Position numbers and translations under genes: made by a program. The notes beneath the pieces are model-generated. The model was given only the letters and a program-made list of their open reading frames with translations. It was not told where the DNA came from and searched no databases. DNA of 64,000 bases from Bacteroidota bacterium (GTDB lineage Bacteria; Bacteroidota; Bacteroidia; Bacteroidales; FEN-979), in the NCBI GenBank assembly GCA_026391795.1, contig JAPLDI010000004.1, positions 26,068 through 90,067 of the forward strand, in the 5' to 3' direction. Positions 8,943 to 55,015 of the stretch are shown here, piece after piece (position 1 is the stretch's first letter; the number at the start of each line of letters is the position of its first letter).

Positions 8943-10874
8943 ATGGTAACATTTGAAGAATTGGGTATCCACCCTGTTCATGTGGATGCTTTGAAGGAAC
9001 TTGGATTTGAATACCCCATGCCGGTGCAGGAAAAGGTCATTCCCCTGCTGCTTTCCGGCCCGGTTGATATTGTTGCCCTGGCCCAGACCGGCACAGGGAA
9101 GACGGCAGCCTTCGGACTGCCACTCATCCAGATGACCGACCCCCACAGCAAGTACCCCGAAGCACTGATCCTCGCACCGACCCGTGAACTCTGCATGCAG
9201 ATTGCCGGCGACCTGAACGACTTTGCCAAGAACACCGACGACCTGAAGATCCTTCCCGTTTACGGAGGAAGCAGCATGGAAGTGCAGATGAAGGCCCTGA
9301 AAAAAGGCGTTCAGATCGTGGTAGCCACTCCGGGACGACTCTGCGACCTCATCCGCAGGAAAGCCATTAAACTCAGCGACGTGAAGACCGTGGTCCTCGA
9401 CGAGGCCGACGAGATGCTCAACATGGGATTCCAGGAGAGCATCAACGACATCCTTTCGGAAGTGCCGAAAGAACGCGCTACCCTGCTTTTTTCCGCCACC
9501 ATGCCGGCCGAGGTCGCCGTGATCGCCCGGAAATACATGCACGACCCGGTCGAGGTGACCATCGGGAACCGGAATGCCGGCGCCGAGAATATCAAACACC
9601 TTTACTATACGGTTCATGCCAAAGATAAATATATCGCCCTGAAAAGGATTGTCGACTTCTACCCCAATATTTACGGGATTGTGTTTTGCAGAACACGTAA
9701 GGACACCCAGGAAATAGCCGACAAGCTGATGCACGATGGTTACAACGCGGAATCCCTTCACGGCGATCTTTCGCAGGCCCAGCGCGACATGGTGATGCAG
9801 AAGTTCCGCATCCGCCATGTAAAGCTGCTCGTGGCTACCGATGTCGCCGCACGCGGACTCGACGTGGATGACCTGACACACATCATCAACTACAGTCTTC
9901 CCGAAGACATCCAGGCCTACACGCACCGCAGCGGACGTACAGGACGTGCAGGGAAAGCAGGCATTTCCATCTGCATCATCAACCTGAAGGAAAAATATGT
10001 CATCCGTCAGATCGAGAAAAAGATCAACAAATCCTTTATTGCAACGAAAGTTCCCGGCGGAAGGGAGATCTGCGAGAAGCAGCTCTTCAGCATGATCAGC
10101 AAGATGGAAGAGGTGGATCTTGAACATACCGAGATCGACAGCTATCTTCCGGCGATCTACCGCAAGCTGGAATGGCTCGACAAAGAGGAGATCATCAAGC
10201 GCTTTGTCGCACTTGAATTCAACCGTTTCCTGGAGTATTACAAGAATGCCAAGGATATCAACGTTGCCGATGACAAATCGGCGGGCCCTTACAAAGAAAG
10301 GGAATGGGGATCGTATAAAGACCGGGACAAGGGTTCCTACCGGGACCGGGAAAGAGGATCTTACAAGGAGCGTGATAAAGGCTCCTACAAAGAACGTGAG
10401 ACGGGTTCATACAAGGAACGCGACAAGGGCTCCTACAAGGAACGTGAAAGTGGATCTTACAAGGAACGCGAAAGCGGATCTTACAAAGAACGCGAAAGGG
10501 ATTCTGACAGCCCTGCCCGTATCCGCAAGAACGATTCCGGCTTTGCACGGCTTTTCATCAACCAGGGAAAGTCAGACGGACTATTCCCCATCAGCCTTAT
10601 CGAACTTGTGAATGAACATACCCCCGGAAAAAAAGTTCCCATCGGCAGGATTGATCTTTTTGACCGTTCCGCTTCTTTTGAAGTGGGCGCCGAATTTGCC
10701 GAATTCCTGGTGAAGACATTGCAGCACCAGGATTTCCGTGGATCGGAGATCACCGTTGGATTTGAATCGGGAAAAGACAGCCAGCGGAGAGATGAACAGG
10801 AGTTCCGCAAGCGGAAGAAAGACCCGAAGAAATTCGCTGATGCTACAAAACGGAAGAGGATCCGGAAAGATTAA
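8943..10874 (+). CDS. DEAD-box ATP-dependent RNA helicase with a DbpA-like C-terminal RNA-binding domain
   Basis: Motifs AQTGTGKT, PTRELC, VLDEADEML, SAT and HRSGRTGRAG. C-terminal FARLFINQGKSDG...IGRIDLFDRSASFEV. Internal 9x octapeptide repeat. Confidence 0.9.
   Translation: MVTFEELGIHPVHVDALKELGFEYPMPVQEKVIPLLLSGPVDIVALAQTGTGKTAAFGLPLIQMTDPHSKYPEALILAPTRELCMQIAGDLNDFAKNTDDLKILPVYGGSSMEVQMKALKKGVQIVVATPGRLCDLIRRKAIKLSDVKTVVLDEADEMLNMGFQESINDILSEVPKERATLLFSATMPAEVAVIARKYMHDPVEVTIGNRNAGAENIKHLYYTVHAKDKYIALKRIVDFYPNIYGIVFCRTRKDTQEIADKLMHDGYNAESLHGDLSQAQRDMVMQKFRIRHVKLLVATDVAARGLDVDDLTHIINYSLPEDIQAYTHRSGRTGRAGKAGISICIINLKEKYVIRQIEKKINKSFIATKVPGGREICEKQLFSMISKMEEVDLEHTEIDSYLPAIYRKLEWLDKEEIIKRFVALEFNRFLEYYKNAKDINVADDKSAGPYKEREWGSYKDRDKGSYRDRERGSYKERDKGSYKERETGSYKERDKGSYKERESGSYKERESGSYKERERDSDSPARIRKNDSGFARLFINQGKSDGLFPISLIELVNEHTPGKKVPIGRIDLFDRSASFEVGAEFAEFLVKTLQHQDFRGSEITVGFESGKDSQRRDEQEFRKRKKDPKKFADATKRKRIRKD
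10284..10499 (+). repeat. Coding tandem repeat: nine 24-nt units encoding G-(S/P)-Y-(K/R)-(E/D)-R-(D/E)-x
   Basis: GPYKEREW GSYKDRDK GSYRDRER GSYKERDK GSYKERET GSYKERDK GSYKERES GSYKERES GSYKERER. Units differ at synonymous positions. Confidence 0.9.
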
Positions 10875-11994: not shown

Positions 11995-12031
11995 TGCAGA
12001 TTTTAGCAGATTAATCGCAGATTTCCGCAGA
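11995..12031. repeat. CGCAGAT-family repeat (F4)
   Basis: TGCAGATTTTAGCAGATTAATCGCAGATTTCCGCAGA. Confidence 0.85.
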
Positions 12032-14245: not shown

Positions 14246-14267
14246 TTCTCTGTGAACCTCTGTGTAC
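14246..14267. repeat. CTCTGTG-family fragment (F2)
   Basis: TTCTCTGTGAACCTCTGTGTAC. Confidence 0.85.
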
Positions 14268-15595: not shown

Positions 15596-15598
15596 ATC

Positions 15599-15705
15599 TT
15601 CTCTGTGAACCTCCTTTTACCTCTGTGGTTCTCTGTGTAACTACTTTTTACAGGGTTTGGGTATTACACAGAGGTACACAGAGAAGGCACAGAGACTCAC
15701 AGAGG
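15599..15705. repeat. About 107-nt palindromic CTCTGTG/CACAGAG composite element, copy 1 (F2)
   Basis: Left arm TTCTCTGTGAACCTCC..CCTCTGTGGTTCTCTGTGTAA. Right arm TTACACAGAGGTACACAGAGAAGGCACAGAGACTCACAGAGG. It is collinear with 32108-32213. Confidence 0.9.
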
Positions 15706-17954: not shown

Positions 17955-17981
17955 TTAGCGCCTTAGCGCCTTAGCGGTGAA
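17955..17981. repeat. CTAAGGCG octamer x3 (F3-like), forming the esterase C-terminus and stop
   Basis: The - strand reads ACCGCTAAGGCGCTAAGGCGCTAA and encodes ...TAKALRR*. Confidence 0.85.
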
Positions 17982-18761
17982 ATAAAATTCGAAAACAGCC
18001 TTGTTTTGTGAATTCCAAAAAGTATAATTATGCCCGCAGGTATCGCATAAGGCAAGCTGATGTCCGAGTGCAGGATTTTCCCTCCTGATTTTTTCTGAAA
18101 ACCCGATGGATTGCTGGCAGGGAACGACAGCATCCCGTTTCCCGTGTGCGAGGTAAAGGGCTGTTTTCAGGCGGTCAGAATGCAGGGCGGGATTATCAGT
18201 GCCCTCCCACCTGGATTTAAACTGTTCATAGGATCCATAATATCCTGTCATCAGCCGGTCAGCCGGCATGAGGGTCTGGTCATAATCGCCCGACAAGGCA
18301 GCGCCGGCAAGGAACAGGCTGCCGGTATTCTCTGCAACAAGCGCTACGCCTCTTGCACCTGTCGAGATGCCGTAAAGGAAATTCTTGCCGCCTGAATTAA
18401 AAACCGAAAATTGCTTCCTGCAGAAAGGGATCAGCGTGTCGGTGATCCATTTCAGGGTCGGGTACCGTCGCCAGTCGTTCCTTGTTTCCGGGAAAAGCTC
18501 CGAAGAATATACGCTTTTCAGCATTTCCGGAAGGACGAGGATATATCCCCGTTTTGCTGCCTCTTCGCAAAAAGCGCTTTTGTTGCACACATCGCTCCGG
18601 CCGAAATTCCAGCCGGGAAGCACCAGGATGGCGCCTGCGACGGGATTTCCCGGGAAACGAAAATCTACCGGAACAACCCCGACAAGGATCGTCGTATCAT
18701 GCTCCGCTTTTACCTGGAGTCCCGAAAATAAAAAAAGTGCCGAGAGGAATAAATTCCGCAT
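17955..18761 (-). CDS. Secreted alpha/beta-hydrolase (esterase-like)
   Basis: Signal peptide MRNLFLSALFLFSGLQVKA. Nucleophile elbow G-I-S-T-G (LYGISTGARG) and a late His (CDTCGHNY). Confidence 0.7.
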   Translation of the reverse strand: MRNLFLSALFLFSGLQVKAEHDTTILVGVVPVDFRFPGNPVAGAILVLPGWNFGRSDVCNKSAFCEEAAKRGYILVLPEMLKSVYSSELFPETRNDWRRYPTLKWITDTLIPFCRKQFSVFNSGGKNFLYGISTGARGVALVAENTGSLFLAGAALSGDYDQTLMPADRLMTGYYGSYEQFKSRWEGTDNPALHSDRLKTALYLAHGKRDAVVPCQQSIGFSEKIRRENPALGHQLALCDTCGHNYTFWNSQNKAVFEFYFTAKALRR

Positions 18762-20394
18762 TGAAAATCATTGGTTTCTTAATGTAAAAGTACAAAATGT
18801 TAAGCTGTTTTGTTGAAACGCCTCTGTGACCCTCTGTGTCTTCTCTGTGAACCTCTGTGTAATTTCTAAACTTGATGAACCCCAGGATATACATTCCCTT
18901 AAGCAGCGCCCCCAGTTCAATCCGGCTTTTATTTTCCTGCCGAAGGATGCACCGGCCCGGGAGATCGTAGATTGCAACCTGAAACTTTGTATTCTCTTTG
19001 AGATACCCGGGGTTAAGCTCTGCATAAGAAGAACGGATGACCGAAGGTATGATCTGCAGCTGACTATTGCCGGCGACATCCCGGATCCCGGAAACAGGCG
19101 GGAGCATGTGAAAATTGAAATATTCCTGGTTCTGACCTGACCGTTTGTCGGCCCAGGTTCCGTAAACTGCGGAATCGGAGAGGGAGGCTCCCAGAAAATC
19201 GTTACCTGTTAACCCTGTGAAAAGGGATCCCGGTGTCTGGCTCAGGGCGAAGTTCGGTGAAAATGTGACCCCTTTGTCTGTGGAATAAGAACCATAGATC
19301 CGGTAATCGGAATTTGGTTCTGAGGTTCCGTTGCGGCGGTCGCGCCAGAGTGCTGAATAAGTCCCTTTTCCCGAGAATCCGCCCCAGCACATGTCCTGGC
19401 CTTTTCCGTTACCCACCGGATCATCGTTCAGCCTTGCGGTCGTGCTCCAGGTAGCACCGCCGTCCTGCGAAACGTTAACCCAGATGTCCCAGTCACCCTC
19501 CCGGCGGTCGGTAAGGATATGGATCAGGTTGGTGCTGTCGGCCGGATTGGCTGCCAGGTGATAACTGTACTGGTAGAGGCTGTCGCCCGGGGGTATCGCG
19601 GAGGAAAACGGCAATTCCGAGATGATGCCGGTTGTGAATGTCTGCCCGCCATCATCCGACTTTACAAAAACATCCCTGACATGCAGGTTCTGTGAAATAT
19701 CGTAGGAAAGGTAGTTCACAAAAAGGACTCCGTCGGCCGACACGCAGGGTACGCCCATCGTATTTGCAGTTCCGCCGACCGGCAATGAATCGTCAAGGAT
19801 CTTCGGCGTCTCCCAGGTCACTCCTTCGTCGGATGACCGGATAAGATAAATATGGTGCGTGACGGTTGCCTGTTTGATCGATTTGGTGACGAGGTAGAGC
19901 GTTCCCTTTGAAGGACCGTTACTGTTGTCGACGGCCAGCCAGGGACGATCGATGGGAATATCGGGAGCAGCCGACGCATCGATAGCCAGGACAGGAACAC
20001 TCCAGGAGGCTCCGCCGTCGGTCGATTTCGTGATGTAAACGGCTCCTTCGGAAAGTGTGATATTGTTATAATCGATATAGGCAAAAAACAGGGTTCCGTC
20101 CGAAGATGCAATCAATGCAGGATCGGCAGAGGTGAAGGAGGAAGAAAAATGAGGCATGTACACCGGGGCCTGCCAGGTGTTCCCGTGATCGGACGAACGG
20201 CTGATCGCAATGGATACGGTATTCAGCGAGGTCAGTTTCATCCAGGCAGCAACAAGAATTGCCGTATTGGAAGGATCAACCGCCAGGCTGATCTCCCCGT
20301 TCCAGGTGAAGTTCGGGTTTACAGGAACATCGTTCTGCGCATGTACGACGAAAACAGAGAATGCAAAAAGTGCCGAGAGGAATAAATTCCGCAT
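18697..20394 (-). CDS. Secreted BNR/Asp-box six-bladed propeller protein (sialidase-like fold) with a T9SS sorting domain whose last strand is replaced
   Basis: Six Asp-boxes: SSDHGNTW, STDGGASW, SSDEGVTW, SDDGGQTF, SQDGGATW and STDKGVTF. The CTD-like ...VAIYDLPGRCIL...LLKGMYILGF then reads for 59 codons through duplicate block A and into the esterase gene. Confidence 0.7.
   Translation of the reverse strand: MRNLFLSALFAFSVFVVHAQNDVPVNPNFTWNGEISLAVDPSNTAILVAAWMKLTSLNTVSIAISRSSDHGNTWQAPVYMPHFSSSFTSADPALIASSDGTLFFAYIDYNNITLSEGAVYITKSTDGGASWSVPVLAIDASAAPDIPIDRPWLAVDNSNGPSKGTLYLVTKSIKQATVTHHIYLIRSSDEGVTWETPKILDDSLPVGGTANTMGVPCVSADGVLFVNYLSYDISQNLHVRDVFVKSDDGGQTFTTGIISELPFSSAIPPGDSLYQYSYHLAANPADSTNLIHILTDRREGDWDIWVNVSQDGGATWSTTARLNDDPVGNGKGQDMCWGGFSGKGTYSALWRDRRNGTSEPNSDYRIYGSYSTDKGVTFSPNFALSQTPGSLFTGLTGNDFLGASLSDSAVYGTWADKRSGQNQEYFNFHMLPPVSGIRDVAGNSQLQIIPSVIRSSYAELNPGYLKENTKFQVAIYDLPGRCILRQENKSRIELGALLKGMYILGFIKFRNYTEVHREDTEGHRGVSTKQLNILYFYIKKPMIFNAEFIPLGTFFIFGTPGKSGA
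18732..18874. repeat. 143-bp exact duplicate block, copy A (promoter region plus first 10 codons MRNLFLSALF)
   Basis: By eye it is identical to 20365-20507. It includes an F2 module and TTTGTACTTTTA on the - strand. Confidence 0.9.
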
Positions 20395-20507
20395 TGAAAA
20401 TCATTGGTTTCTTAATGTAAAAGTACAAAATGTTAAGCTGTTTTGTTGAAACGCCTCTGTGACCCTCTGTGTCTTCTCTGTGAACCTCTGTGTAATTTCT
20501 AAACTTG
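20365..20507. repeat. 143-bp exact duplicate block, copy B
   Basis: Identical to 18732-18874. It carries the start of the BNR gene (MRNLFLSALF). Confidence 0.9.
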
Positions 20508-20567
20508 TTGAAACGCCTCTGTGACCCTCTGTGTCTTCTCTGTGAACCTCTGTGTAATTTCTAAACT
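20444..20567. repeat. 62-bp tandem duplication (2 units) of an F2 module
   Basis: TGTTGAAACGCCTCTGTGACCCTCTGTGTCTTCTCTGTGAACCTCTGTGTAATTTCTAAACT occurs twice, head to tail. Confidence 0.9.
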
Positions 20568-22056: not shown

Positions 22057-23502
22057 CTAAAGTCCGTACTCATCAATCAAATACACCATCGCTGCCATCG
22101 AGGCAGTTCCCAACTGCAGCTCACGGATGTTTACCGCTTTGAAGGTATCATTGGCCGAATGGTGGTAATCAAAATAGCGTTGCGAATCGGGTACCAGCCC
22201 GAGCAAAGGCACCCCCTGCTCCTTCAGCTTGCCGACATCGACACCGCTTCCCCCTTTCTCGAAGAAAAACAATCCATAAGGGAGAAGAAGGTTTTTCCAC
22301 GACTGGATTTTTTTCACCTGGTTGTCAGTACCGTCGATAGAGAAACCCCACGGCGTGAAACCTCCACGATCGGCTTCAATGGCGGCAACGTGACGATAGG
22401 GTTGAGTCAGCGGATGAGCAGTTCCCGAGGTATTTTGTTTATCCAGCATCCAGTATCCAGCATCCAGCATCTTTTTCGAAGCCTCCGCATAGGCTTTCGC
22501 TCCACGCTGTTCCATCTCCTCATCCATGAAGACCACGACGCGGATCGTATGTTTCGTTTTCAGGTTAAGCGATTTGCAGAGTCTTAAAATATCGATGGAC
22601 TGAACCACGCCAGCCCCGTCGTCGTGTGCACCCTGGCCGATATCCCAGCAGTCGAGGTGACCGCCGAAGGCAATGATCTCATCGGGGTGTTCTGTCCCGC
22701 GGAGCTCGCCGATCACATTGTAGGAGACCGCTTCCGGAAGTTCGGTGCAGGAGGTTTTCAGAAATATTTTCAGCTCCGGGTCTGCTTTGATCCATTTGCT
22801 CAGTTCATCAGCCTCCAGAGTGCTGACCGACAGCGCCGGGATCTTGTTCACGGTATCTGCATAATGCATTACGCCGGTATGCGGGAAGTTGTCGAGCGAG
22901 GTTGTGGCAGAACGGTCTATCATGGCAATGGCGCCGTAGTAAGCCGCCTGAACGGCTCCGCGCACACGGTAGCCCGCCACTCCGCCATAGGCGGCAAACG
23001 TATTATAGAGGGAGGGATCGGCGGGATGGTTGATGAAGACGATCTTACCGGAAACTTTTTCTTTGCCAAGTTTCTTCAGTTCATCATAATCCTTCACCTC
23101 CACCACGTTCGCCGTGAGGCCGTTTGCTACTGTCGGAACAGACCCGCCAAGGGCGCAGATGACGAGCTCGTGGTTCCCGGCTTTGGCAGAGATCACCCTG
23201 CCGGTTTCTTTTGTCCCCCTTTCCCAGTGCCTCACCTTGCATTCCTGAAGATAAACCGTGTCCAGCCCCATTCCTTTCAGCAGCTGTTCTGCCCATTTCA
23301 CCGCTTTCATGGATTGGGCTGTTCCCGCCAGCCGCCCGGCGTATGAGCCGGTCAGGGTCCTCAGGTTATGATAGGAAGTGGTATCGGTAAGGGCATCAGT
23401 GAAAATGCGTTTGATAGCGATGCTGTCAGCATTCTGTGCTTTTGCCGTAGTGCCGGCAGAGATCAGAAAACAGAAAACGGAAATCAGAAGGATGTTTTTC
23501 AT
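22057..23502 (-). CDS. M28-family aminopeptidase (secreted)
   Basis: Signal peptide MKNILLISVFCFLISAGTTAKA. Metal-ligand region GGHLDCWDIGQGAHDDGAGVV. Later motifs FMDEE and YHHSANDT. Confidence 0.8.
   Translation of the reverse strand: MKNILLISVFCFLISAGTTAKAQNADSIAIKRIFTDALTDTTSYHNLRTLTGSYAGRLAGTAQSMKAVKWAEQLLKGMGLDTVYLQECKVRHWERGTKETGRVISAKAGNHELVICALGGSVPTVANGLTANVVEVKDYDELKKLGKEKVSGKIVFINHPADPSLYNTFAAYGGVAGYRVRGAVQAAYYGAIAMIDRSATTSLDNFPHTGVMHYADTVNKIPALSVSTLEADELSKWIKADPELKIFLKTSCTELPEAVSYNVIGELRGTEHPDEIIAFGGHLDCWDIGQGAHDDGAGVVQSIDILRLCKSLNLKTKHTIRVVVFMDEEMEQRGAKAYAEASKKMLDAGYWMLDKQNTSGTAHPLTQPYRHVAAIEADRGGFTPWGFSIDGTDNQVKKIQSWKNLLLPYGLFFFEKGGSGVDVGKLKEQGVPLLGLVPDSQRYFDYHHSANDTFKAVNIRELQLGTASMAAMVYLIDEYGL
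22441..22471. repeat. ATCCAG(C/T) heptamers (F7) inside the M28 peptidase coding sequence
   Basis: ATCCAGCATCCAGTATCCAGCATCCAGCATC encodes ...MLDAGYWMLD... on the - strand. Same unit as the 32683-32808 array. Confidence 0.85.
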
Positions 23503-31254: not shown

Positions 31255-31278
31255 CACCAGCTCATCAACTCATCAGCT
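31255..31278. repeat. F1 module between convergent genes, supplying the aldolase stop
   Basis: CACCAGCTCATCAACTCATCAGCT. On the - strand AGCTGATGAGTTGATGAG holds the TGA at 31265-31267. Confidence 0.85.
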
Positions 31279-32089
31279 TCCCCAGCTGCTCCTCCGTCAG
31301 CCCTTCCGGTTCATAACCTGCGCTTTTAACCAGGAAGTAGATCTTTGCCGACTTGGCCAGAAGATCAATCGTGTCGAAAGCATCTGCTGCCGTTGATCCG
31401 GTGGCAAGTACCCCGTGTTTCTCCCACAATGCCACCGGGTATGTTTCCAGGGTTTTTACCGTGGTCCCTGCGATGCCCGATGTCCCGGGAATTTCAAACG
31501 GGATGAATCCGACTCCTTTCGGAACAAATAATATGGTTTCGGGGTGCATTCCCCAGAGCAGCCGGTTCAGCTTTTCTGTTGAACAAAGTTCACTGATTTG
31601 CGTGAGGGCGATTAGTTCAGTGCAATGGGTATGAACAAGTGCTTTTGAAGATGAATTCGTGCGCACCAGCATTTCGTGAACAGCGAGATGGGTGGGGAGT
31701 TCGGAGGTTGGAGTCGGGTTTTCGCTTTTCGCTTTTCGCTTTTCGCTATTTATTGTTGGCTTATCACCCCCGGCAGTTAGGATTTGATACCCGGTACCCT
31801 CACTGGTAATTTTCAGGACACATAAATATTTCCGGGGATCCCGGGCAATGTCCCGCATGCGGCTTCCGGCAGCAGTCACGACAATCACCTGGTCCCCTAA
31901 CGTGTACCGTGCACCGCGAAGCTGTTCCACTGAAACAGTATCAAATAGTGACAGCTCTTCCGCCGAAAGAAGGTCTGTGACATTGACCGAGATGTTTCCG
32001 GCATTGCGTTCGGCCCAGCCTTTTTCCCAGAGACAACCGGCGGTATCTGCTATCTCTGCTGCGATCTTTTCAAGGCTCTTGAATTCCAT
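31265..32089 (-). CDS. Class II aldolase/adducin-family protein (rhamnulose-1-phosphate aldolase-like)
   Basis: WEKGWAERNAGNISV, PTSELPTHLAVHE and VHTHCTELIAL (zinc His cluster). It carries an in-frame repeat-derived insert. Confidence 0.75.
   Translation of the reverse strand: MEFKSLEKIAAEIADTAGCLWEKGWAERNAGNISVNVTDLLSAEELSLFDTVSVEQLRGARYTLGDQVIVVTAAGSRMRDIARDPRKYLCVLKITSEGTGYQILTAGGDKPTINSEKRKAKSENPTPTSELPTHLAVHEMLVRTNSSSKALVHTHCTELIALTQISELCSTEKLNRLLWGMHPETILFVPKGVGFIPFEIPGTSGIAGTTVKTLETYPVALWEKHGVLATGSTAADAFDTIDLLAKSAKIYFLVKSAGYEPEGLTEEQLGKLMS
31718..31752. repeat. (TTTTCGC)x3-TATTTAT module (F11) inside the aldolase coding sequence
   Basis: GTTTTCGCTTTTCGCTTTTCGCTATTTATTG encodes ...INSEKRKAKSEN... 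on the - strand. Confidence 0.85.
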
Positions 32090-32107: not shown

Positions 32108-32213
32108 TTCTCTGTGAACCTCTGTGCCTCCTCTGTGGTTCTCTGTGTAACTTCTTTTTGGGTTTTAATAATTACACGGAGGTTCACTGAGAAGACACAG
32201 AGGACCACAGAGG
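32108..32213. repeat. About 106-nt palindromic CTCTGTG/CACAGAG composite element, copy 2 (F2)
   Basis: TTCTCTGTGAACCTCTGTGCCTCCTCTGTGGTTCTCTGTGTAAC ... ATTACACGGAGGTTCACTGAGAAGACACAGAGGACCACAGAGG. Confidence 0.9.
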
Positions 32214-32217: not shown

Positions 32218-32679
32218 TTACGTTCTTTTGGACCTGAAGAACGTGGTCATCAATTCCCCGCACTCTTCCGCCAGGATCCCGGAGACGACTTTCGTTTTCG
32301 GATGAAGCAGTTTCTTCTTCACCAGCCGGTATCCCCGTTTGGGATCTTCGGCCCCGTAAACCAGGTTCCCCAGTTGTGCCCAGAATGCAGCCCCGGCGCA
32401 CATCACGCAGGGTTCAATGGTCACATAAAGAGTACATTCATTCAGGTATTTTCCGCCCAGGTATCCTGAAGCCGCTGTGAATGCCTGCATCTCGGCATGA
32501 GCCGTCACATCGTTCAGGGTTTCCGTGAGGTTGTGGGCCCGGGCAATGATCCGGTCCTGGCAAACCACCACGGCCCCGATCGGCACCTCGTCTTTTTCCA
32601 GCGCCTTTTTTGCCTCTTTCAGCGCTTCGTTCATGAAGTACTCAGGTGAGTAGAGCGGATAGGATTTCGGTTGGGTCAT
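32218..32679 (-). CDS. tadA: tRNA-specific adenosine deaminase
   Basis: HAEMQA and PCVMCAGA zinc-binding motifs. 153 aa. Confidence 0.85.
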   Translation of the reverse strand: MTQPKSYPLYSPEYFMNEALKEAKKALEKDEVPIGAVVVCQDRIIARAHNLTETLNDVTAHAEMQAFTAASGYLGGKYLNECTLYVTIEPCVMCAGAAFWAQLGNLVYGAEDPKRGYRLVKKKLLHPKTKVVSGILAEECGELMTTFFRSKRT

Positions 32680-32682
32680 GAT

Positions 32683-32808
32683 GCTGGATACTGGATACTG
32701 GATGCTGGATGCTGGATACTGGATGCTGGATACTGGATGCTGGATGCTGGATGCTGGATGCTGGATACTGGATACTGGATGCTGGATGCTGGATGCTGGA
32801 TGCTGGCT
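32683..32808. repeat. Heptamer array (G/A)CTGGAT, 17 units plus 1 degenerate (F7)
   Basis: Perfect 7-nt phase. The first base of each unit runs G A A G G A G A G G G G A A G G G, followed by a degenerate GCTGGCT. Confidence 0.95.
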
Positions 32809-32827
32809 TATCGTAACTTAGCCTTCC

Positions 32828-32904
32828 CATCTCACATCTCCCATCTCACATCTCCCATCTCACATCTCACATCTCACATCTCACATCTCACATCTCACAT
32901 CTCA
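32828..32904. repeat. Heptamer array CATCTC(A/C), 11 units (F8); the last unit supplies a stop codon
   Basis: Perfect 7-nt phase with no G on the + strand. The last three bases TCA (32902-32904) are the TGA of the - strand T9SS gene. Confidence 0.95.
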
Positions 32905-35634
32905 TTTTTTTATAAACTTCTCCGTCCTCTGCTTTCTTCCATCCAAATAAATGCTGACAAAATAAACTCCCGGGGCAAGGCCGGAAACATTCATTTTTTC
33001 TGTCATTGTGCCACTGGTCTTTCCGTTGCTCTCTTCCAGTATGACTTTTCCTGACGGATCATAAATCCTGAAGAGGATGTTCCCTGTTTCATTGGTCAGG
33101 AAAGAAAGATTCAGTGTTTCCCCAACCGGGTTCGGGTACATCCGGAAGGCCTGGAGCTGATAGTTTTCAACAGAAGTTTCAACATCCCATTGTGCGGTGA
33201 AAAGACCTCTTCCATGAGTGGCCGCAATTACCGTGTTATCAACGGTCCGCAGGTTCAGCTGATCCACCCTCACGTTGGCCATTCCAGTCACATCCGGTGT
33301 CCAGACGACCGGCGAGGCATTGATGTTTATTGTTGTCCAGATGCCTGTCTCGGTGGCAAGCATGACCTGCCGTGAGTTCTGGGGATGAAAGAGACCCCAC
33401 CGCACGGGCATGTCGGGAAGGTTGCCTTCGCAATTGGTCCAGTTCAGCCCTCCGTCATACGTCAGGAATACAGAGGCCACTCCGTAATTTGAAAAAGTCA
33501 CCAGAAGGGTGTCTTCTGATTTTCCGATAGCGACCGAAGAGATGTTTCCGACCGGGAAGGAGGATCCGGTGATCTCCGTGGTAGATGGTGTGAACGCTGC
33601 ATTTGTAACCCTGAACAGCCTTCCCGACTGCGTTCCCAGGAAGAGGTTGGCATTCCCAACAGGTGAATAGGGTGACCACCTAACGGCAGAGAAATAGGTT
33701 TGTACGGTTGTCCCCAGGGATATAAATTCCCCGTAACCGGTACCGGTCACATCCGACAACCTCAAATAAGTATCAACCATGTTCCCGATAAAATCACAGG
33801 CGTTGGCATAGATCACCTTGCTGCGGTAATCATAGTCGGCAGGATTGACAAAAATCCCGCTCTGCCAGTTGCTCAGGTAACCTGAGTTCGTTCCGTTGAT
33901 CTGAACATAATAGTTATTGTAATAAATGGAACTGATGGAATAATAGGTGTCATTCCGGTCGAAAAAGCAAATGGCTCCGTCGCCGCCGCTAACCATATCG
34001 TTGATGGTAACCGGGGGGTTATAATAATAGAGGCTTCCGTTGTCCTGCAACCCGCCAATCAGTTCTGTGGATCCTGCTTCGTTTTTCAGGTCAGCTGAAT
34101 AAAACTGCAGGGTGTTGTAATCGAGGTTTCGTTGTTCAAAAGTTGGCATGTTGTTATTGGCGGTAGCGGTATAGAATATGCCTCCGTCGGTTCCCAGCAG
34201 CATCTCTGTTGAGGAGCCTGGTTTGTAAACCATGATGTGCTGATCGGCATGAAGATATTCCGACCCGCCGCCACTGTACATCAGCGACCAGTCGCTGACA
34301 CGGGTCCAGTAAGTGCCCCCGTTGCTCGATTTGTGCACATCCAGCCCTCCGATAAACAAGACATCCGGAGCATTCGGATCCACAGCAATGTCGAGTGCAT
34401 GCCATGCAAGGTACGCGAAACTCAACTGCCCCTGGATATCGGTCGGCAGGCTCTTTTTCGTCCAGGTCACTCCCTTATCCCCGGAACGGAGAATGTTAAA
34501 GCAATAATAATATTTGAAGTTATTGACCGAACTGATCAGCCCTGAAGCTACCAGGGCATACACCACATTCGCATCTGACTGGGCACATCCAAAGACCACA
34601 CGGCCGGGGATGTTGTACTGCGGATCCGCAAGGATCTGGTTGCGGTAGGTCTGATTTACATTCCATGATCCGGGCAACCCGGTATCGGAATAGAGTAATA
34701 CCGCACCCCCGTTCCCATCCAGGTTCGGCATCGTGCCGACGAATATTCTTCCATCTGCACCCAGAACCAGGTCGGAGGGGGAATAGGGAACGCTGAACCC
34801 TGCGATGTTTGGCAAAACCTGCGTCCAGGATGTTCCTCCGTCGGTTGAACGGAAAAGCCCGTCGGACGGCTGGCTGTTTTGGGTTCCATGATATAACCCT
34901 GAAATCACAGCAGCATAGATTACGCTGTTGCCGCCTTCGTTCCGCACAACAATCTTTGGGGTATAAACAAAACCGGTGGTGGAGTTCAGCCGGTTCCAGC
35001 TTACGCCGCCATCGGTTGATTTCCAGATTCCGTCACCCAGCCCTGAAGATTCCCGGTAGGTCTGTATGGCGGTTTCGCCTTCGCCGGTCCCGATGTAAAA
35101 GACAGAGGGGTTATTCGGGTCATAGGTGATGCAACGGACGGCCAGCGTCGGCCAGAAGTCGCCAACCGGAACCCACGACTGGTTCGGATTCGTGATATCG
35201 GTGTTGTACCAGAGCCCGCCTGTCACTCCCCCGGCCCAGACCTTGTGGGATGTCGGGTCATTGGGGTCGTACATGATCGCGCGTGTGCGGCCACCCATGT
35301 TTGAAGAATAGCCGGTCCAGGTAAGAGTGGTTGCTGAACTTTTTTGTTTCTGGAGGCTTCGCGTTGCAAGGGTTGCATCGTAAAGACGGTCGCGCGGAAC
35401 GGTTCCCGTGGCGGGATCAACCGTCATGAAATAATCCTGTATGGCAGCCATGTCGGGCTGATCCGCCGCTGCTTCGTTCTTTTCATTCGGGGCAGACTTG
35501 GGCAATTTGCGGTATTCCTGTTTCATGAAAGATTCGAATTTTGCCCGCTGAAATGTTTTCGAATGCTTGTATGCCACTACGAGCATTGAAATCGCAAGGA
35601 ATACCATCAGGGAGGGAAGGATGATTTTTTTCAT
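32902..35634 (-). CDS. T9SS-secreted multi-BNR/sortilin-like (VPS10/GH74-like) propeller protein
   Basis: Asp-boxes STDGGVSWN, STDGGTSWTQ, SGDKGVTWTK, SSNGGTYWTR and TYDGGLNWTN. Sorting domain MYPNPVGETLNLSF...GVYFVSIYLDGRKQRTEKFIKK. Start is placed at MKKIILPSLMVFLAISML (35634); the GTG 35751 extension is rejected. Confidence 0.75.
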   Translation of the reverse strand: MKKIILPSLMVFLAISMLVVAYKHSKTFQRAKFESFMKQEYRKLPKSAPNEKNEAAADQPDMAAIQDYFMTVDPATGTVPRDRLYDATLATRSLQKQKSSATTLTWTGYSSNMGGRTRAIMYDPNDPTSHKVWAGGVTGGLWYNTDITNPNQSWVPVGDFWPTLAVRCITYDPNNPSVFYIGTGEGETAIQTYRESSGLGDGIWKSTDGGVSWNRLNSTTGFVYTPKIVVRNEGGNSVIYAAVISGLYHGTQNSQPSDGLFRSTDGGTSWTQVLPNIAGFSVPYSPSDLVLGADGRIFVGTMPNLDGNGGAVLLYSDTGLPGSWNVNQTYRNQILADPQYNIPGRVVFGCAQSDANVVYALVASGLISSVNNFKYYYCFNILRSGDKGVTWTKKSLPTDIQGQLSFAYLAWHALDIAVDPNAPDVLFIGGLDVHKSSNGGTYWTRVSDWSLMYSGGGSEYLHADQHIMVYKPGSSTEMLLGTDGGIFYTATANNNMPTFEQRNLDYNTLQFYSADLKNEAGSTELIGGLQDNGSLYYYNPPVTINDMVSGGDGAICFFDRNDTYYSISSIYYNNYYVQINGTNSGYLSNWQSGIFVNPADYDYRSKVIYANACDFIGNMVDTYLRLSDVTGTGYGEFISLGTTVQTYFSAVRWSPYSPVGNANLFLGTQSGRLFRVTNAAFTPSTTEITGSSFPVGNISSVAIGKSEDTLLVTFSNYGVASVFLTYDGGLNWTNCEGNLPDMPVRWGLFHPQNSRQVMLATETGIWTTININASPVVWTPDVTGMANVRVDQLNLRTVDNTVIAATHGRGLFTAQWDVETSVENYQLQAFRMYPNPVGETLNLSFLTNETGNILFRIYDPSGKVILEESNGKTSGTMTEKMNVSGLAPGVYFVSIYLDGRKQRTEKFIKK

Positions 35635-35680
35635 GGAACCGGGATTAAATGGAATGGATGAAGTTAGATTGTTCGTATTA

Positions 35681-35688
35681 CAAAGATA
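35681..35688 (-). promoter_or_regulatory. Candidate -7 promoter box (TAnnTTTG) on the - strand
   Basis: The reverse complement reads TATCTTTG, 47 nt upstream of ATG 35634. Confidence 0.5.
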
Positions 35689-35748
35689 ACATAAACACAA
35701 ATGATCTTTACTTGATTTTACATGGCGGTTATCTGCCATTCCTTTTTT

Positions 35749-35839
35749 CACTTCTCACTTCTCACCTCTCACTTCTCACTTCTCACCTCTCACTTCTCAC
35801 TTCTCACCTCTCACTTCTCACCTCTCACCTCTCACTTTT
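35749..35839. repeat. Heptamer array CAC(T/C)TCT, 12 units plus 1 degenerate (F9), overlapping the truB stop
   Basis: Unit variants run T T C T T C T T C T C C, a 21-nt super-period for 3 rounds. No G on the + strand. The truB codons EKSER* are array units. Confidence 0.95.
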
Positions 35840-36553
35840 TTCTATCAGTGCCGATTTAAGGTCCTCAACATCATAGGCATCACGAAGGGAATAGGGCCCG
35901 ATGCGGGTACGACAGAGCGCACTGAGGTGTGCACCGGTATTGAGGGCCAGGCCGAGATCACGCGCCAGTGCCCGGATGTACGTCCCCTTGCTGCAGGCAA
36001 CGCGGAAATGGACCTGCGGCAGGTTCAGCTCCTGCACCTCAAAAGCGGAAATGGTGATGTTTTTGGGAACCATGATCACCTCCTGGTCCTTCCGGGCATA
36101 ATCGTACGCCCTCTTCCCCTTGATCTTCTTTGCGGAAAAAACCGGGGGAAGCTGGTCGTAGTTTCCGGTGAGCTTTTCCACTGCAACCTGTATCTCTTCT
36201 TTGGTGATATGCTCCCAGGGATAGTGAAAATCAATCTCTTTTTCCAGGTCGAACGATGCCGTGGTTGAACCCAGGACAAAAGTCCCGGTATATTCCTTGT
36301 CAAACTCCTTGAACTCTTCAATCCGTTTGGTCATCCTGCCGGTGCAGAGGATCAGCAGTCCGCTTGCCAGCGGGTCAAGGGTGCCGGCGTGACCGATCTT
36401 GATTTTTTTAAGTCCAAGCTGTTTACGGATGTAGTTCCGAACGAGGTTCACCACATCAAACGAGGTCCATTTGTATGGCTTGTTCACCAGGAGGATCTCT
36501 CCCTTTTCGAAATCAAATTTCAGCTTCCCGGGTTCCTGTGTTTCTAAGTCCAT
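35825..36553 (-). CDS. truB: tRNA pseudouridine(55) synthase
   Basis: [14 protein letters not shown] catalytic-Asp motif. 242 aa. Confidence 0.9.
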
Positions 36554-36592: not shown

Positions 36593-36625
36593 TTTTTACC
36601 ACAATGTCAACTCATAGCTATAAAT

Positions 36626-36767
36626 AGTTCTCGCAGATTTTCGCAGATGATACGCTGATTCACGCAGAAAACCTTATGATTGTAAATCCCGGATTTTACC
36701 ATTTAATACAGAAACCTCCTTTTATCTGCGAAAATTTGCGGTAAATCTGCGAAAATCTGCGAGAACT
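36626..36767. repeat. Palindromic CGCAGAT-family element (F4) with 23-bp perfect terminal inverted repeats
   Basis: AGTTCTCGCAGATTTTCGCAGAT (36626-36648) is the exact reverse complement of ATCTGCGAAAATCTGCGAGAACT (36745-36767). Additional F4 units flank the arms on the inside. Confidence 0.9.
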
Positions 36768-36787
36768 TTTTTTCTGCGAGATATTTT

Positions 36788-37567
36788 TTATTGCTCGGTC
36801 AACCCTTTTCCGAAGATAATAAGAAGAAGGATGGCCAGCCCAACAACGATCCTGTAATAGCCGAAAACCCTGAATCCGTATTTTGTGAGGTAGGCAATAA
36901 ATGCCTTGATGGCGATCATCGCTACGATGAAGGAAATCACGTTGCCAACCAGTAACAGTTCAAGGTGATCACCTTTTATCAGCGTATAATTCTTGGCCAG
37001 CTTCAGCACCGAGGCGGCAAACATCGTTGGAACAGCAAGGAAAAATGAAAATTCTGCAGCTTTTGTCCTTGAGAGTTTCTGCGTCATCCCCCCGACAATC
37101 GTGGCAGCCGATCGTGAAACTCCGGGGATGATGGAGATGATCTGGAAAAAACCGATGATCAGTGCTTTTTTGAAGGTCATACCGGTTTTTTCATTTTCAG
37201 GACGGTCGAACCACTGATCGACAAACAGGAGCAGGATTCCTCCAACCAGCAATGAAACCGCCACGATCAAAACGCTTCCAAGCATCTCGTCCACCTGCTT
37301 TTGAAGAAAATAGGCGATAACCAGCGGAAGACACGCAACAGCCAGCTTGAAATAAAAATCCCAGGATTGGAAAAACCGTTTCCAGTAAAGTACGATAACC
37401 GAGAGTATGGCCCCGAATTGGATGTTCACCGTAAATGCCTTGACAAAATCATCAGAGGGTATGCCCATGATGCTTTGGGCTAAGATCATGTGCCCGGTGG
37501 AGGAGATCGGCAGGAACTCGGTTATTCCTTCAACGATGGCAAGGATGATGGCCTGAAGGAGCGACAT
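36788..37567 (-). CDS. uppP: Undecaprenyl-diphosphate phosphatase
   Basis: [14 protein letters not shown] and the [10 protein letters not shown] motif. 8 TM helices. Confidence 0.9.
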
Positions 37568-46645: not shown

Positions 46646-46690
46646 AGTTCTCGCAGATTTTCGCAGATTTTTCGCTGATTCCCGCAGAAC
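46646..46690. repeat. CGCAGAT-family single arm (F4)
   Basis: AGTTCTCGCAGATTTTCGCAGATTTTTCGCTGATTCCCGCAGAAC. Its first 23 nt are identical to 36626-36648. Confidence 0.9.
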
Positions 46691-46779: not shown

Positions 46780-49700
46780 ATGAAAACAAGACCATTCATC
46801 CTGGGCTTTGTGTTTTTTATAACGAGCCTCCTCACCTTTTCCCAAACCACACACTCCAGCCTGCCAACTCATCAACTCACCAGCTCGCCAGCCCATCAGC
46901 TCACCAGCTCATCAGCTCCCTATGACCGCCAGTGGAAAAAGGTTGATTCCCTGAATAACCTGGGGCTGCCGAAATCGGCCCTGGTGATTGTCAACAAGAT
47001 CTACGACCAGGCAAAAAAAGAAAAGAATGATGCGCAGTTCGTCAAGGCCATAATTTTCAGGCTGAAACTGAAAGCCGACTACAGGGAAGATGTGACCGCA
47101 GCATCCATCCGGGAGATCACGGCAGAGATAAAAACATCACGCGAGCCGGTAAGGCAGCTCCTGAATTCAATCCTGGCAGAGGTTTACCAGACCTATTACC
47201 AGAATAACCGCTACCGCTTCCAGGACCGGACCCAGGTTATGAACAACAATACCGACAGCATCCAAACGTGGGACTTGAAAACACTTAGCCGGAAGACTGC
47301 AAATACCTGGCTCCTTTCACTTCAGAATGCACCATTGCTGAAGACGATCCCCATTGGAAATTTCGAAGAAATCCTGATTCAACCCCGGCAGAAGGGAGAC
47401 CCGAAGAAAGATAAAGAAGATAAAAACAATTTTCGTCCTACCCTGTACGACTTTTTATGCTGGCGGGCACTGGGCTATTTTTCAGGAAGCGGGAGTTTTG
47501 ACAAGGCGTATGCCGAAACCTTTTTAATTGATCAGGCTGCCTGTTTTAGCCAGGCACCTGATTTTACCTCGAAGAAGCCTGAATTGCCGGCAGATTCATC
47601 TTCTTATCTTGCCGTTGCCCTTGTCCTCTTTCACGATCTGGCATCTTTCCATGTAAACGACAAAGATCCCCGTGCACTTATCGACGAAGAGATCCATCGT
47701 TTTCAGTTCCTGAGAGAGAATTCAATCCTTGCGGATAAAGACAGCCTCTGCCTCGATGCATTAAAAAAGCTGGAGGGAATACATCTTTCTTCACCCTGGT
47801 CAGCCGATGTCACATATGCCATTGCCGCGTTTCTCAAAGAACAGGGGGCACAGTACCAGCCGCTGGTATCACAGAAACATAAATGGGACCTGAAAGAGGC
47901 TTATGGTTATTGCAGCCTGGCAATAAAGCGGTTCCCGGAAAGTACAGGGGCAAATAATTGCAGGTTGCTGGCCGGTGAGATCGAAAAACCTTCGCTTCAG
48001 CTCCAGTCTGAATATGCTGTTGTGCCCGTCAAACCTTGCCTGGGTGTGATTGAATTCAGGAACCTGAAAAAACTCTCCTTCCGGCTTGTCAGAACAGACC
48101 CCGAAACAAACCAGGAAAGAACCACGAACCGTAACCGGGAGGAACTGATTTCCTACTACACGGGACTGCCTTTTCAGAAGAGCTGGTCGCTCGACCTGCC
48201 CAACGACGGCGATTTCCAGTCGCACAGGATGGAGTTTCTCATTCCCGGAATGCCGGCCGGATTTTATGTCCTTATCGCCTCTTCCGACACTAATTTTAAA
48301 GATCCCGGCCAGGTGATTGCCTGGACGCCTTTCTTTTCAACGCAGATCAGCTACATCAGCCAGCGGAATGAAAAAAGCGAAGTGCGTTTCTACATTCTCG
48401 ACCGGGAGGCCGGGACTCCGTTGAAAAATGTTGTTGCTGTGGCATTCCACAATGTCTATAACTACAACTCCAGAAAATACGAAAATCAGAAGCTGGGTGA
48501 ATATATATCGGATGAAAACGGATCCATCTTCCTGCCGGCATTGCCGCCAACTGCGGCTTCCAGCAGTTTGTTCCTTCGGCTGAAGATGAATGACGACCTC
48601 TTTGTGACGGGTAACTATTACCAGTATCCTGTCTACACTGCGGAAGAGAAAACAACACAGACCACTTATTTCTTCACCGACCGGGGAATATACCGGCCGG
48701 GGCAAACGATTTATTTCAAAGGGATCCTTCTTGAAAAGAAAAAGGAGATATACGCGATCAAGCCGGGTGTTCAAACCACGACGGTTTTTACCGACGTTAA
48801 CGGACAGAAGATTTCTGAACAGAATTTTACAACAAATGAATATGGTTCGTTCAATGGTTCATTTGCAATCCCGCAGGGGTTGTTGCCTGGAAAAATGTCG
48901 CTGTCAAACAGCTCCGGATCTGTCACCGTCTCTGTTGAAGAGTACAAGCGCCCCACTTTTGAGGTTTCCATTGATCCTGTTGAAGGAAACTACCGCCTCA
49001 ACGACAGCGTGACGATAACCGGGAAAGCAATAGCTTATGCCGGAAACAACATCGATGGCGCAGCTGTGAAATACCGGGTAGTGCGCTCCGCCCGTTTTCC
49101 TTTCTGGGAAAGAGGATGGTGGTTCCCCATGCCATCTGTCCCGGAGACAGAGATCCTCCAGGGCACACTGAAAACAGCCGGGGATGGCAGTTTTAAAATA
49201 AAATTCAAGGCAGTTCCCGACCTTACCGTCGACAAATCCTCAAAACCTGTATTTGATTATGTGATCTATTCCGATGTAACCGATATCAACGGAGAGACCC
49301 AGTCGGCCAACGAAAGTGTTTCTGTGGGCTATGTATCCCTGCTGATCGGGCTTGATGTTCCGGAGAAACTCGATCCTTCAAAGGATACGCTGTTTCACCT
49401 GACCTCAACCAATCTGAATGGCCGCAAGACCCCTGCCATTATTACGGTGACCATACAAAACCTGCGCCAGCCCGACCGGTTTTTCCGTGAGCGCAAATGG
49501 GACCGGCCAGATCTGACAGGGATGACTGAAAAGGAATTTCACACCGCTTTTCCGAATGATGTTTATACCGACGAGAACCTTGTTTCCACATGGCCCGTGC
49601 AACTGGATGTCCTGAACAAAGAGTTCAATACATCCAAAGATTCCGTGCTCCTCTTTTCACAGATTGCCAGGCGTGAGAACGGGGGTTGGGGGTTGGAGGA

Positions 49701-53007: not shown

Positions 53008-53016
53008 CAACCCGAT

Positions 53017-53040
53017 GCGGGATGCTGGATGCTGGATACC
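53017..53040. repeat. GCTGGAT heptamers (F7)
   Basis: GCGGGATGCTGGATGCTGGATACC lies 10 nt after the A2M stop. Confidence 0.85.
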
Positions 53041-54836: not shown

Positions 54837-54861
54837 GGAGCTGACGAGCTAATGAGGTGAG
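54824..54861. repeat. CTGACGAG-family array (F1) supplying the aspS stop
   Basis: GCTGACGAGTTGAGGAGCTGACGAGCTAATGAGGTGAG. The TGA at 54834-54836 is the stop. Confidence 0.85.
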
Positions 54862-54884
54862 TATCTGTTGATACGGTTGGGTGG

Positions 54885-54917
54885 TTTTTTTTCACCGCAA
54901 AGTCGCGAAGACGCAAG
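54885..54917. repeat. ACCGCAAAG-family module (F3)
   Basis: TTTTTTTTCACCGCAAAGTCGCGAAGACGCAAG, followed by AAATCGTAAATTG at 54937-54949. Confidence 0.85.
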
Positions 54918-54955
54918 AACCTGATTCGGAAATCTGAAATCGTAAATTGCTTTGA

Positions 54956-55012
54956 CTTTATAAACTTTATAACTTTAAGAACTTTATAAACTTTATAAAC
55001 TTTATAAACTTT
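54956..55012. repeat. CTTTATAAA nonamer array (F12) immediately upstream of a lipoprotein gene
   Basis: CTTTATAAACTTTATAACTTTAAGAACTTTATAAACTTTATAAACTTTATAAACTTTT ends 3 nt before ATG 55016. Confidence 0.9.
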
Positions 55013-55015
55013 TGT

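Follow-up and report, generated by a model that had tools for sequence, protein, structure and literature searches.

Introduction

Heptamers are an over-represented class among the long simple sequence repeats (SSRs) of bacteria, and polymerase slippage has been proposed as their cause (PMC4692102). Described examples include the short tandemly repeated repetitive (STRR) sequences of cyanobacteria, with the unit GGGGA(C/T)T in Nostoc, and the GGGAATC repeats of Xanthomonas (Rehm et al. 2015, PMC4692102, citing Mrazek et al. 2007). Here we describe two heptamer arrays that occupy the spacer between a gene for a cargo protein of the type IX secretion system (T9SS) and tadA on a 64,000-nucleotide (nt) stretch from an uncultured Bacteroidales genome (GenBank assembly GCA_026391795.1, contig JAPLDI010000004.1, positions 26,068 to 90,067 of the forward strand). 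This whole stretch is referred to as the window, and coordinates are counted from its first letter. As in the STRR and GGGAATC systems, where 7-nt units stand head to tail in 2–26 copies, the arrays of the window are strongly intergenic, occur at many loci per genome, vary in length and sequence between close species at the same gene pair, and sometimes form inverted pairs; slippage is the proposed origin there as well. Some STRR heptamers are also found inside operons, for example the 26 units between pecE and pecF of Nostoc (PMC4692102). Contiguous units, intergenic enrichment and variation between genomes, all the features of intergenic heptanucleotide SSRs that we tested, were found in the arrays described here. 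Unlike the STRR and GGGAATC heptamers, those of the window belong to an uncultured Bacteroidales host, do not form G-quadruplexes, stand beside 8-nt arrays and arrayed hairpins of 10–11-nt units, and follow the gene strand in their orientation, being G-poor before starts and G-rich after stops.

A second related system is formed by the direct TAACTGA repeats of marine Beggiatoaceae, some Cyanobacteria and five Bacteroidetes (MacGregor 2015, PMC4679880). These repeats typically run in forward orientation to within a few nucleotides of a start codon that lacks a Shine–Dalgarno (SD) sequence, an arrangement that is shared by the array next to tadA (array 1) and not by the array next to the cargo gene (array 2), which follows a stop codon. 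Like the arrays of the window, TAACTGA repeats stand upstream of essential genes, are patchy across phyla, and share spacers with other heptamers (in Gramella, Aequorivita and Elizabethkingia). The units differ: those discussed here are AUCCAGC and UGAGAUG, and whereas TAACTGA carries stop codons in all frames, ATCCAGC contains none on either strand. In the Beggiatoaceae genome one unit is also dominant, in 2–6 copies, in contrast to 52 units and up to 18 copies in the present data.

Other repeat classes are more readily told apart. The contingency loci of Haemophilus, Neisseria and Campylobacter (PMC2651432) are likewise perfect tandem tracts prone to slipped-strand mispairing, but they consist of 1–5-nt units (sometimes 7) in the reading frames or between the promoter elements of surface or restriction–modification genes, whereas the arrays of the window lie in untranslated spacers beside housekeeping genes. 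Repetitive extragenic palindromes and bacterial interspersed mosaic elements (REP/BIME) are intergenic, oriented with respect to genes and present in many copies, as are the arrays described here, and they are transcribed, as these arrays probably are; the arrayed hairpins of 10–11-nt units in the window (for example 32110–32212) are similarly placed. Unlike REP/BIME, arrays 1 and 2 are direct repeats, and their mutual pairing is neither better than chance nor conserved. We saw no REP-associated tyrosine transposase (RAYT) in the window. Assignment to REP/BIME or to an intrinsic terminator was rejected, as there is no conserved stem that is better than chance and no G+C-rich stem followed by a U-run in 32680–32904. 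A clustered regularly interspaced short palindromic repeats (CRISPR) array was rejected because the units are contiguous and no cas domains were found among the window proteins.

Results and Discussion

Both genes that flank the spacer lie on the minus strand. The downstream gene (32218–32679) encodes a tadA-type tRNA adenosine deaminase of 153 amino acids (Pfam MafB19-deam / dCMP_cyt_deam_1), and tadA is essential in E. coli. By Pfam, the upstream gene (32902–35634) has a C-terminal sorting domain of the Por_Secre_tail type and matches sortilin/Vps10 weakly. The initial annotation had named tadA and a T9SS gene as the neighbours of the arrays: the former is correct, and the latter codes for cargo rather than for secretion machinery. 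Its description of the arrays themselves, covering units, register, the G/A run, the 19-nt gap and the end on a stop codon, was reproduced exactly.

Array 1 consists of 17 exact GCTGGAT/ACTGGAT units in unbroken register on the plus strand (32683–32801), with the variable base running G A A G G A G A G G G G A A G G G, and of a degenerate 18th unit, GCTGGCT (32802–32808). A partial unit GAT (32680–32682) joins it to CAT (32677–32679), the complement of the tadA start codon. On the gene strand the whole element (32680–32808) therefore reads as (CCAGCAU/CCAGUAU)x18, with the degenerate unit distal to tadA. A unique stretch of 19 nt (32809–32827; TATCGTAACTTAGCCTTCC on the plus strand, GGAAGGCUAAGUUACGAUA on the gene strand) separates it from array 2 (32828–32904), which comprises 11 CATCTCA/CATCTCC units without a G on the plus strand. 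It reads as (UGAGAUG)x11 on the gene strand, where C is absent and two units have the variant form GGAGAUG. The last TCA of array 2 is the complement of the TGA stop of open reading frame (ORF) 32902–35751, so that the first UGA of the array is the stop codon of the cargo gene. In the direction of transcription the spacer thus runs from this stop through (UGAGAUG)11, 19 nt, (CCAGYAU)18 and a single C to AUG. Tandem Repeats Finder scored array 1 with 212 and array 2 with 140. Together the arrays occupy 204 of the 222 nt of the spacer, which is extreme among the spacers of the window, and degenerate units are found at those edges of the arrays that border the 19-nt stretch.

Array 1 leads straight into the tadA start codon (...CCAGCAUC-AUG), with A at positions −3 and −6 and no purine-rich Shine–Dalgarno sequence. 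Its gene strand contains 39% C, 15% G and no AUG over 127 nt, and folded alone it is nearly structureless (−4.4 kcal/mol). Every unit of array 2 reads AUG-UGA on the gene strand, a start codon with a stop directly behind it, and the last of these AUG codons opens a 62-codon ORF (32642–32830, minus strand) that crosses array 1, which has no stop codon, and terminates 37 nt into tadA. Both features are probably a mechanical outcome of the repeat, but they could affect ribosome traffic between the cargo gene and tadA.

The unit numbers of 18 and 11 are those of the assembly. Public contigs built with k=31 break off 30 nt into array 1, >150 other contigs per sequencing run carry the same unit, and among the matches listed 26 of 117 ATCCAGC arrays of other genomes lie at contig ends; these observations would fit the view that the arrays exist while their assembled lengths and A/G pattern are products of assembly. 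Against this view, the irregular A/G pattern and the unique 19 nt would allow 150-nt paired reads or long reads to resolve a 222-nt spacer, and the tadA junction is identical in four runs: a 536-nt contig (window 32174–32709) that includes it was recovered without a single difference from four independent freshwater/lake metagenomes. We therefore consider an assembly artefact improbable.

To judge whether such arrays could arise by chance, we simulated forty sequences with the dinucleotide content of the window. Per 64 kb, the window contains 12 period-7 and 13 period-8 arrays, compared with 0.30 and 0.07 in the simulations, and its longest array has 18.6 copies, compared with 3.3. This result excludes a chance origin. 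Arrays of these two periods cover 12.1% of the intergenic nucleotides of the window and 0.51% of the coding nucleotides; of the 25 spacers with a length of 40 nt or more, 12 contain one, and arrays adjoin the housekeeping genes leuS, aspS, truB and that of elongation factor G (EF-G). The spacer upstream of tadA is not a special locus: about half of the spacers in the window, including those beside these four genes, hold an array. A search for further copies of the units, which the initial annotation had proposed, did find the array-1 unit at two more sites. GATGCTG x3.9 at 53011–53037 (plus strand), with the G-rich strand as sense, starts 3 nt after the stop codon of an alpha-2-macroglobulin gene and lies upstream of the −7 box of aspS. 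GATGCTG x4.4 at 22441–22471 (sense on the minus strand) lies within the coding sequence of an M28 peptidase, where it encodes KMLDAGYWMLDK. Two more coding-sequence arrays were seen, GCGAAAA x4 in the aldolase gene (31719–31747), which encodes SEKRKAKSEN, and 8-mers of the type CCAGCTCA just past the signal peptide of the alpha-2-macroglobulin (46856–46918); a change by one unit in any of these three would cause a frameshift.

The same abundance was observed at the level of communities. In the four lake metagenomes, where the organism is present at 10–19x, >150 further contigs per run contain GCTGGAT-type arrays with different flanks, and the depth of array words sums to up to 36,000, with the unit reaching up to ~1900x the single-copy depth. 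Among loci from related genomes (numbered L001 and so on), the nearest ones (L004, L005, L006, L030, L037) are similar to the window in array density, and many other Bacteroidales that keep the cargo gene–tadA synteny have none. The arrays are thus characteristic of the lineage. Intergenic regions have a median length of 110 nt where arrays are common versus 60 nt in array-poor loci.

Comparison of orthologous spacers suggests how the two arrays came about. All comparisons are between species, as the relatives share 75–88% nucleotide identity among themselves and with the window. Relatives carry 1–7 copies of CCAGCAT directly before the tadA start codon (L001 has 1, L064 ~3.5, L062 4 and L004 5, compared with 18 in the window). 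The 50-nt spacer of L001 ends in ...AGTTACCAGCATC-ATG, which corresponds to one unit copy, and it shares the AGTTAC part of the 19-nt stretch. The flanks align: the junction ...CCAGCATC-ATG-ACC and AGTTAC are common to the orthologous spacers. At the other end, L062 and L004 carry one (A/G)GTGAAAT immediately downstream of the stop codon, where the window has GTGAGAT x11. Since relatives hold 1–7 units and one (A/G)GTGAAAT at the same sites, both arrays must have grown in place from seeds in the spacer, and the window lineage has undergone a recent large expansion. This agrees with the recent expansion that the initial annotation had proposed from the perfect register. In L014, L017 and L019 the cargo gene and tadA abut or overlap (ATGA; TTATGACC), which is probably the ancestral state. 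L019 itself (SACF01000001.1) is a contig from a metagenome-assembled genome (MAG) labelled as Alphaproteobacteria that carries the Bacteroidales cargo gene–tadA pair with a junction identical to that of L017, and it is probably mis-binned or mislabelled.

The expansion most likely occurred by slippage, as its pattern is the one that slipped-strand replication predicts. CCAGCAT beside the tadA start and GTGARAT after the cargo stop would have served as seeds, the growing arrays would have stretched the gap from abutting or overlapping genes to 222 nt, and copy number would drift in steps of 7 nt. Both arrays would then belong to a lineage-wide pool of 7- and 8-nt arrays that gather in intergenic DNA. 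An intergenic (CTGGATG)8 tract, which has the unit of array 1, was deleted during a single infection by Burkholderia pseudomallei (PMC4313173).

That this unit changed length in vivo, that long perfect tracts are hypermutable in general, and that copy number varies among species could also point to a contingency locus, in which slipped-strand changes switch or tune tadA or the cargo gene between cells. We consider this highly improbable, because the tracts lie outside reading frames and are not flanked by promoter elements (the spacer has neither a TAnnTTTG box nor a sigma-70-type pair), tadA has a housekeeping role and is no variable surface, restriction–modification or virulence gene, similar arrays flank leuS, aspS, truB and the EF-G gene, and seven units left unpaired in the predicted fold of the spacer (see below) would buffer the start codon against small changes. 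A role in phase variation has no anatomical basis, as the tracts are located neither in coding sequence nor between promoter elements.

Strand polarity was examined in the window together with 140 loci that had been fetched by protein similarity and are therefore unbiased for repeat unit. Of the 40 arrays within 40 nt before a start codon, 33 have more C than G on the sense strand (p=4e-5), and of the 54 within 40 nt after a stop codon, 37 have more G than C (p=0.009). Both biases persist when the window is left out. In the window the coding strand changes five times and array polarity changes with it, which shows that polarity tracks transcription and not replication. The C>G polarity is not particular to arrays: all 40-nt leaders are G-poor (G 0.135–0.148, C 0.207–0.215), in array-rich and array-poor relatives alike. 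Ribosomes of Bacteroidia sequester their anti-SD sequence; low mRNA structure and A at −3 tune initiation, and AUG is avoided near starts (PMC7797042, PMC6847099). With A at −3, no AUG and little structure, array 1 fits such leaders. Avoidance of AUG was non-significant for start-proximal arrays as a group, with ATG on the sense strand only in 5 and on the antisense strand only in 10 (p=0.30). The simplest reading of these data is that slippage makes arrays, and that orientations compatible with a leader are kept near starts. The filter would act at the level of RNA: beside start codons, ribosomes blind to Shine–Dalgarno sequences would let only G-poor, unstructured orientations persist, and a G-rich strand would be tolerated after stop codons. 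The effect of the arrays may then be limited to separating tadA translation from the upstream gene and to providing a long unstructured leader.

The composition of array 1 also raises the question as to whether it might load Rho, so that transcription of tadA would hinge on prompt initiation of translation, by attenuation or polarity. Over its 127 nt, C reaches 39% and G 15%, every unit contains pyrimidine–C dinucleotides, self-structure is almost absent, and the array forms an untranslated gap inside a probable operon, all of which are properties generally associated with Rho utilization sites. The same C>G bias is present in all leaders, including those of array-poor relatives, and strong polarity would seem a high price for a gene without which E. 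coli cannot live. We regard this explanation as very unlikely.

The operon itself was examined by way of promoter and terminator motifs. TATCTTTG at 35681–35688 (minus strand) matches the Bacteroidota −7 box TAnnTTTG and lies 47 nt ahead of ATG 35634, at which the cargo gene probably starts. This motif is not enriched in the window (28 occurrences vs 34 expected by chance), and at least 11 of its boxes are sense-oriented and lie 10–50 nt before gene starts. Since it is the sole such box on the minus strand upstream of tadA, we infer that TATCTTTG is the promoter of a transcript that covers the cargo gene and tadA and possibly the aldolase gene. The listed cargo ORF starts at GTG 35751, inside a third array. 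The −7 box at 35681–35688 marks this start as spurious; ATG 35634 (M40 of the ORF) is the probable start, and relatives of the cargo protein align only from residue 32–40 onward. No minus-strand TAnnTTTG box was found in the spacer between the cargo gene and tadA or in that between tadA and the aldolase gene. The region 32680–32904 contains no sigma-70-type promoter pair, although such a scan is uninformative for Bacteroidota, and no terminator-like site on either strand. Because the spacer lacks a promoter and a terminator, and because the genes overlap in relatives, both arrays appear to lie in a single mRNA. As far as these motifs tell, one mRNA most likely spans the cargo gene, tadA and the aldolase gene, with the spacer internal to it. 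The transcription of both arrays within one gene pair that was suggested at the outset is therefore plausible, given that the two genes abut or overlap in relatives. In three metatranscriptomes from these lakes neither tadA nor the aldolase gene received unique coverage; the only matches were 31–37-mers made up entirely of repeat, which are not locus-specific.

Transcribed together, the two arrays might pair as one long imperfect RNA or DNA hairpin, which could act like a REP/BIME element, as an RNase III site, or as an insulator by which the upstream mRNA is stabilised or the cistrons are uncoupled. In the RNAfold prediction, array 2 is joined to 11 of the 18 array-1 units through 5-bp GAUGU:GCAUC helices every 7 nt, with a minimum free energy (MFE) of −71.9 kcal/mol compared with −57.3 ± 4.4 in shuffled sequences (z = −3.3). 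Strong hairpins with tandem arrays as arms also occur in other spacers of the window (32110–32212, with z = −8.6; 36622–36771; 15598–15705; 60763–60834), and L005 and L006 have tandem-array hairpins at the orthologous site. However, when positions were permuted within the units of either array, the MFE was equal or lower in 24–29% of trials, and the eight closest orthologous spacers are unstructured (z −0.9 to +2.1). The hairpins of the more distant L005 and L006 are built from another repeat family, the unit counts of the two arrays are unequal (11 vs 18), and there is no U-tract. Having failed both the permuted-unit control and the test for conservation among orthologues, the hairpin was rejected as a functional element; the pairing is physically possible and looks incidental, and we give a dedicated structural role little credence. 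Rfam 15 returned only tRNA-Val at gathering score, and the arrays had no match at E<=1; at this threshold, 32110–32212 drew only spurious matches to miRNA hairpins.

As a separate observation, hairpins made of an array followed by an inverted array are present in the cargo gene–tadA spacer of distant relatives (L005:12754–12850, L006:3431–3510, L076:1800–2000). Their units are TTCGTG/CACGAA, CACAATAG/CTATTGTG and GTGACAG/CTGTCAC, so that the architecture recurs and the sequence differs.

Among the 92 period-7 arrays of the unbiased loci we counted 52 different units. Exact (ATCCAGC)4 occurs in at least 115 stretches and exact (TGAGATG)4 in at least 119 stretches of a genome collection, and the matches listed come from Bacteroidota, Calditrichia, Planctomycetota, Verrucomicrobiota, Armatimonadota, Chloroflexota, Desulfobacterota and others. 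Among these matches, ATCCAGC arrays of other phyla have 4–43 copies. A control heptamer of equal composition, (ACCATGC)4, was found in 56 stretches from ~30 genomes of many phyla. Since this permuted unit forms arrays as well, heptamer arrays of any unit must be widespread, and the idea that ATCCAGC is uniquely so was rejected. Taken together, the unit diversity and the control make the specific periodic binding site that had been put forward unlikely.

These data also bear on the possibility that the arrays are multivalent RNA platforms whose units are recognised by ribosomal protein S1, a cold-shock protein, a CsrA-like factor or the ribosome, with the effect of setting tadA translation. A role in RNA binding was proposed for the TAACTGA repeats of Beggiatoaceae and for Nostoc heptamers, and the activity of a Nostoc recO promoter reporter changed when the heptamer repeats upstream of recO were deleted (bioRxiv 10.1101/2022.06.06.494920). 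Consistent with such a role, array 1 ends on a start codon in forward orientation, like most TAACTGA sets (PMC4679880), array polarity is strand-specific, and favoured units recur over loci and phyla. On the other hand, 52 units in 92 arrays speak against one binder, relatives have 0–7 units or overlapping genes at the cargo gene–tadA site, the polarity is that of the G-poor composition of all leaders, and an arbitrary permuted heptamer is widely arrayed too. On balance, we regard recognition of this kind as unlikely.

We rather favour, as the probable reading, that the two arrays are heptanucleotide microsatellites made by slippage within an operon transcript, filtered for compatibility with leaders and without a dedicated function. 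The anatomy of the arrays, the enrichment across the genome, the strand polarity, the origin in place and the differences between species were observed directly, and they are consistent with slippage, co-transcription and near-neutrality. Several observations weigh against this reading. The main one is unit choice. The ATCCAGC class is the commonest heptamer of the unbiased loci, with 10 of 92 arrays at 7 loci, and such a choice is non-random. ATCCAGC and TGAGATG are favoured at least twofold over the control, though they are not unique, and it is not obvious that neutral slippage alone would lead to preferred units. Across phyla, among the matches listed, ATCCAGC arrays just after stop codons have GCUGGAU as the sense strand in 28 cases vs 12, an orientation that could reflect function. 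The 18 near-perfect copies beside tadA may themselves be under selection. With regard to transcription, a terminator-like hairpin with a U-run lies within the cargo gene (32988–32966, minus strand), in the region that codes for the C-terminal sorting domain and 60 nt before the stop codon; if it is active, tadA would need its own promoter, and none was found.

The neighbourhood of the arrays is that of an ordinary chromosome. Downstream of tadA lies a class II aldolase gene (31265–32089, minus strand), and upstream of the cargo gene follow truB (35825–36553, minus strand) and uppP/bacA (36788–37567, minus strand), all assigned by Pfam. Other genes of the window encode resistance–nodulation–division (RND) efflux components, a DEAD-box helicase, EF-G, RelA/SpoT, LeuS, AspS, alpha-2-macroglobulin and FtsX. 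The synteny of cargo gene and tadA is retained in at least 23 loci. The closest genomes, with 68–79% amino acid identity on the cargo protein, are MAGs of uncultured Bacteroidales that come from samples of fen, peat, permafrost, Danish soil and lake. The exact TadA protein was present in no record, and metagenome and genome collections contained no conspecific contig; the best matches reach 90% amino acid identity in metagenome contigs and, for the cargo protein, 79% among genome representatives. Array 3 (35745–35835, minus strand), which precedes the cargo gene, consists of (GAGGTGA GAAGTGA GAAGTGA)x4.3, or 13 heptamers (GARGTGA) without C on the gene strand, with a higher-order period of 21 nt and 98% matches. 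The last codons of truB, together with its stop, come from this array, whose unit is one base off that of array 2 (GAUGUGA).

Further repeats of the window differ in kind. A second, exclusively intergenic family has 2–4 units of CCTCTGTG at 10–11-nt spacing, often followed by an inverted block CACAGAGG, so that long hairpins result; it occurs at 32110–32212, 14248–14265, 15598–15705, 18822–18859 and 20443–20567, with constant polarity to flanking genes and no Rfam match. The first of these sites, in the tadA–aldolase spacer, forms a stem with 41-nt arms (MFE −54.2 kcal/mol, z = −8.6), and the last is a perfect 62-bp tandem duplication of a block of the CCTCTGTG/CACAGAGG type. A third family has TCGCAGAnnn units at 10-nt spacing (36622–36771, 11996–12031, 46651–46688), and in the uppP–truB spacer it forms inverted arms of 50 nt that are 80% complementary. 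The 820-nt spacer after aspS (54837–55656) contains ACTTTATAA x6.6 (54955–55012), 11-nt units of GCTAAGCTGGA, and an inverted repeat with 52-nt arms (55446–55556, 81% complementary). ORFs 17955–18761 (no Pfam match) and 18697–20394 (BNR repeats) have identical 110-nt upstream regions (18762–18871 and 20395–20504) that include the CACAGAGG block and also share their first ~30 coding bases, a sign of recent local duplication. The DEAD-box/DbpA helicase gene encodes a C-terminal insert of ~9 octapeptides of the form GSYKER(D/E)x with a 24/48-nt period (10283–10500) between the helicase core and the DbpA RNA-binding domain.

Conclusion

As an isolated locus, the spacer between the cargo gene and tadA matters little; it is an extreme example of a repeat class that has been known since the cyanobacterial STRR sequences were described. 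A practical warning follows from it, as such arrays break short-read assemblies and inflate ORF calls: the GTG start inside array 3 and spurious ORFs of 47–127 amino acids through arrays 1 and 2 are artefacts of this kind.

A bolder interpretation is that 7–8-nt arrays constitute a selected, transcription-oriented system in lineages that are SD-blind or SD-poor, in which copy number sets expression and units such as ATCCAGC and CATCAGCT are recognised by a conserved factor. We think this quite unlikely. If it were true, C-rich, G-poor arrays would be tunable ribosome standby sites or translation enhancers before starts, G-rich arrays would be trailers after stops, and the occurrence of the same units from Bacteroidota to Planctomycetota, Calditrichia and Burkholderia would be explained.

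What the arrays do tell is that in this uncultured freshwater and peat lineage of Bacteroidales ~12% of the intergenic DNA consists of 7–8-nt arrays. Their orientation tracks transcription and matches the needs of SD-blind ribosomes, which makes them a natural experiment on the leaders that Bacteroidia tolerate.

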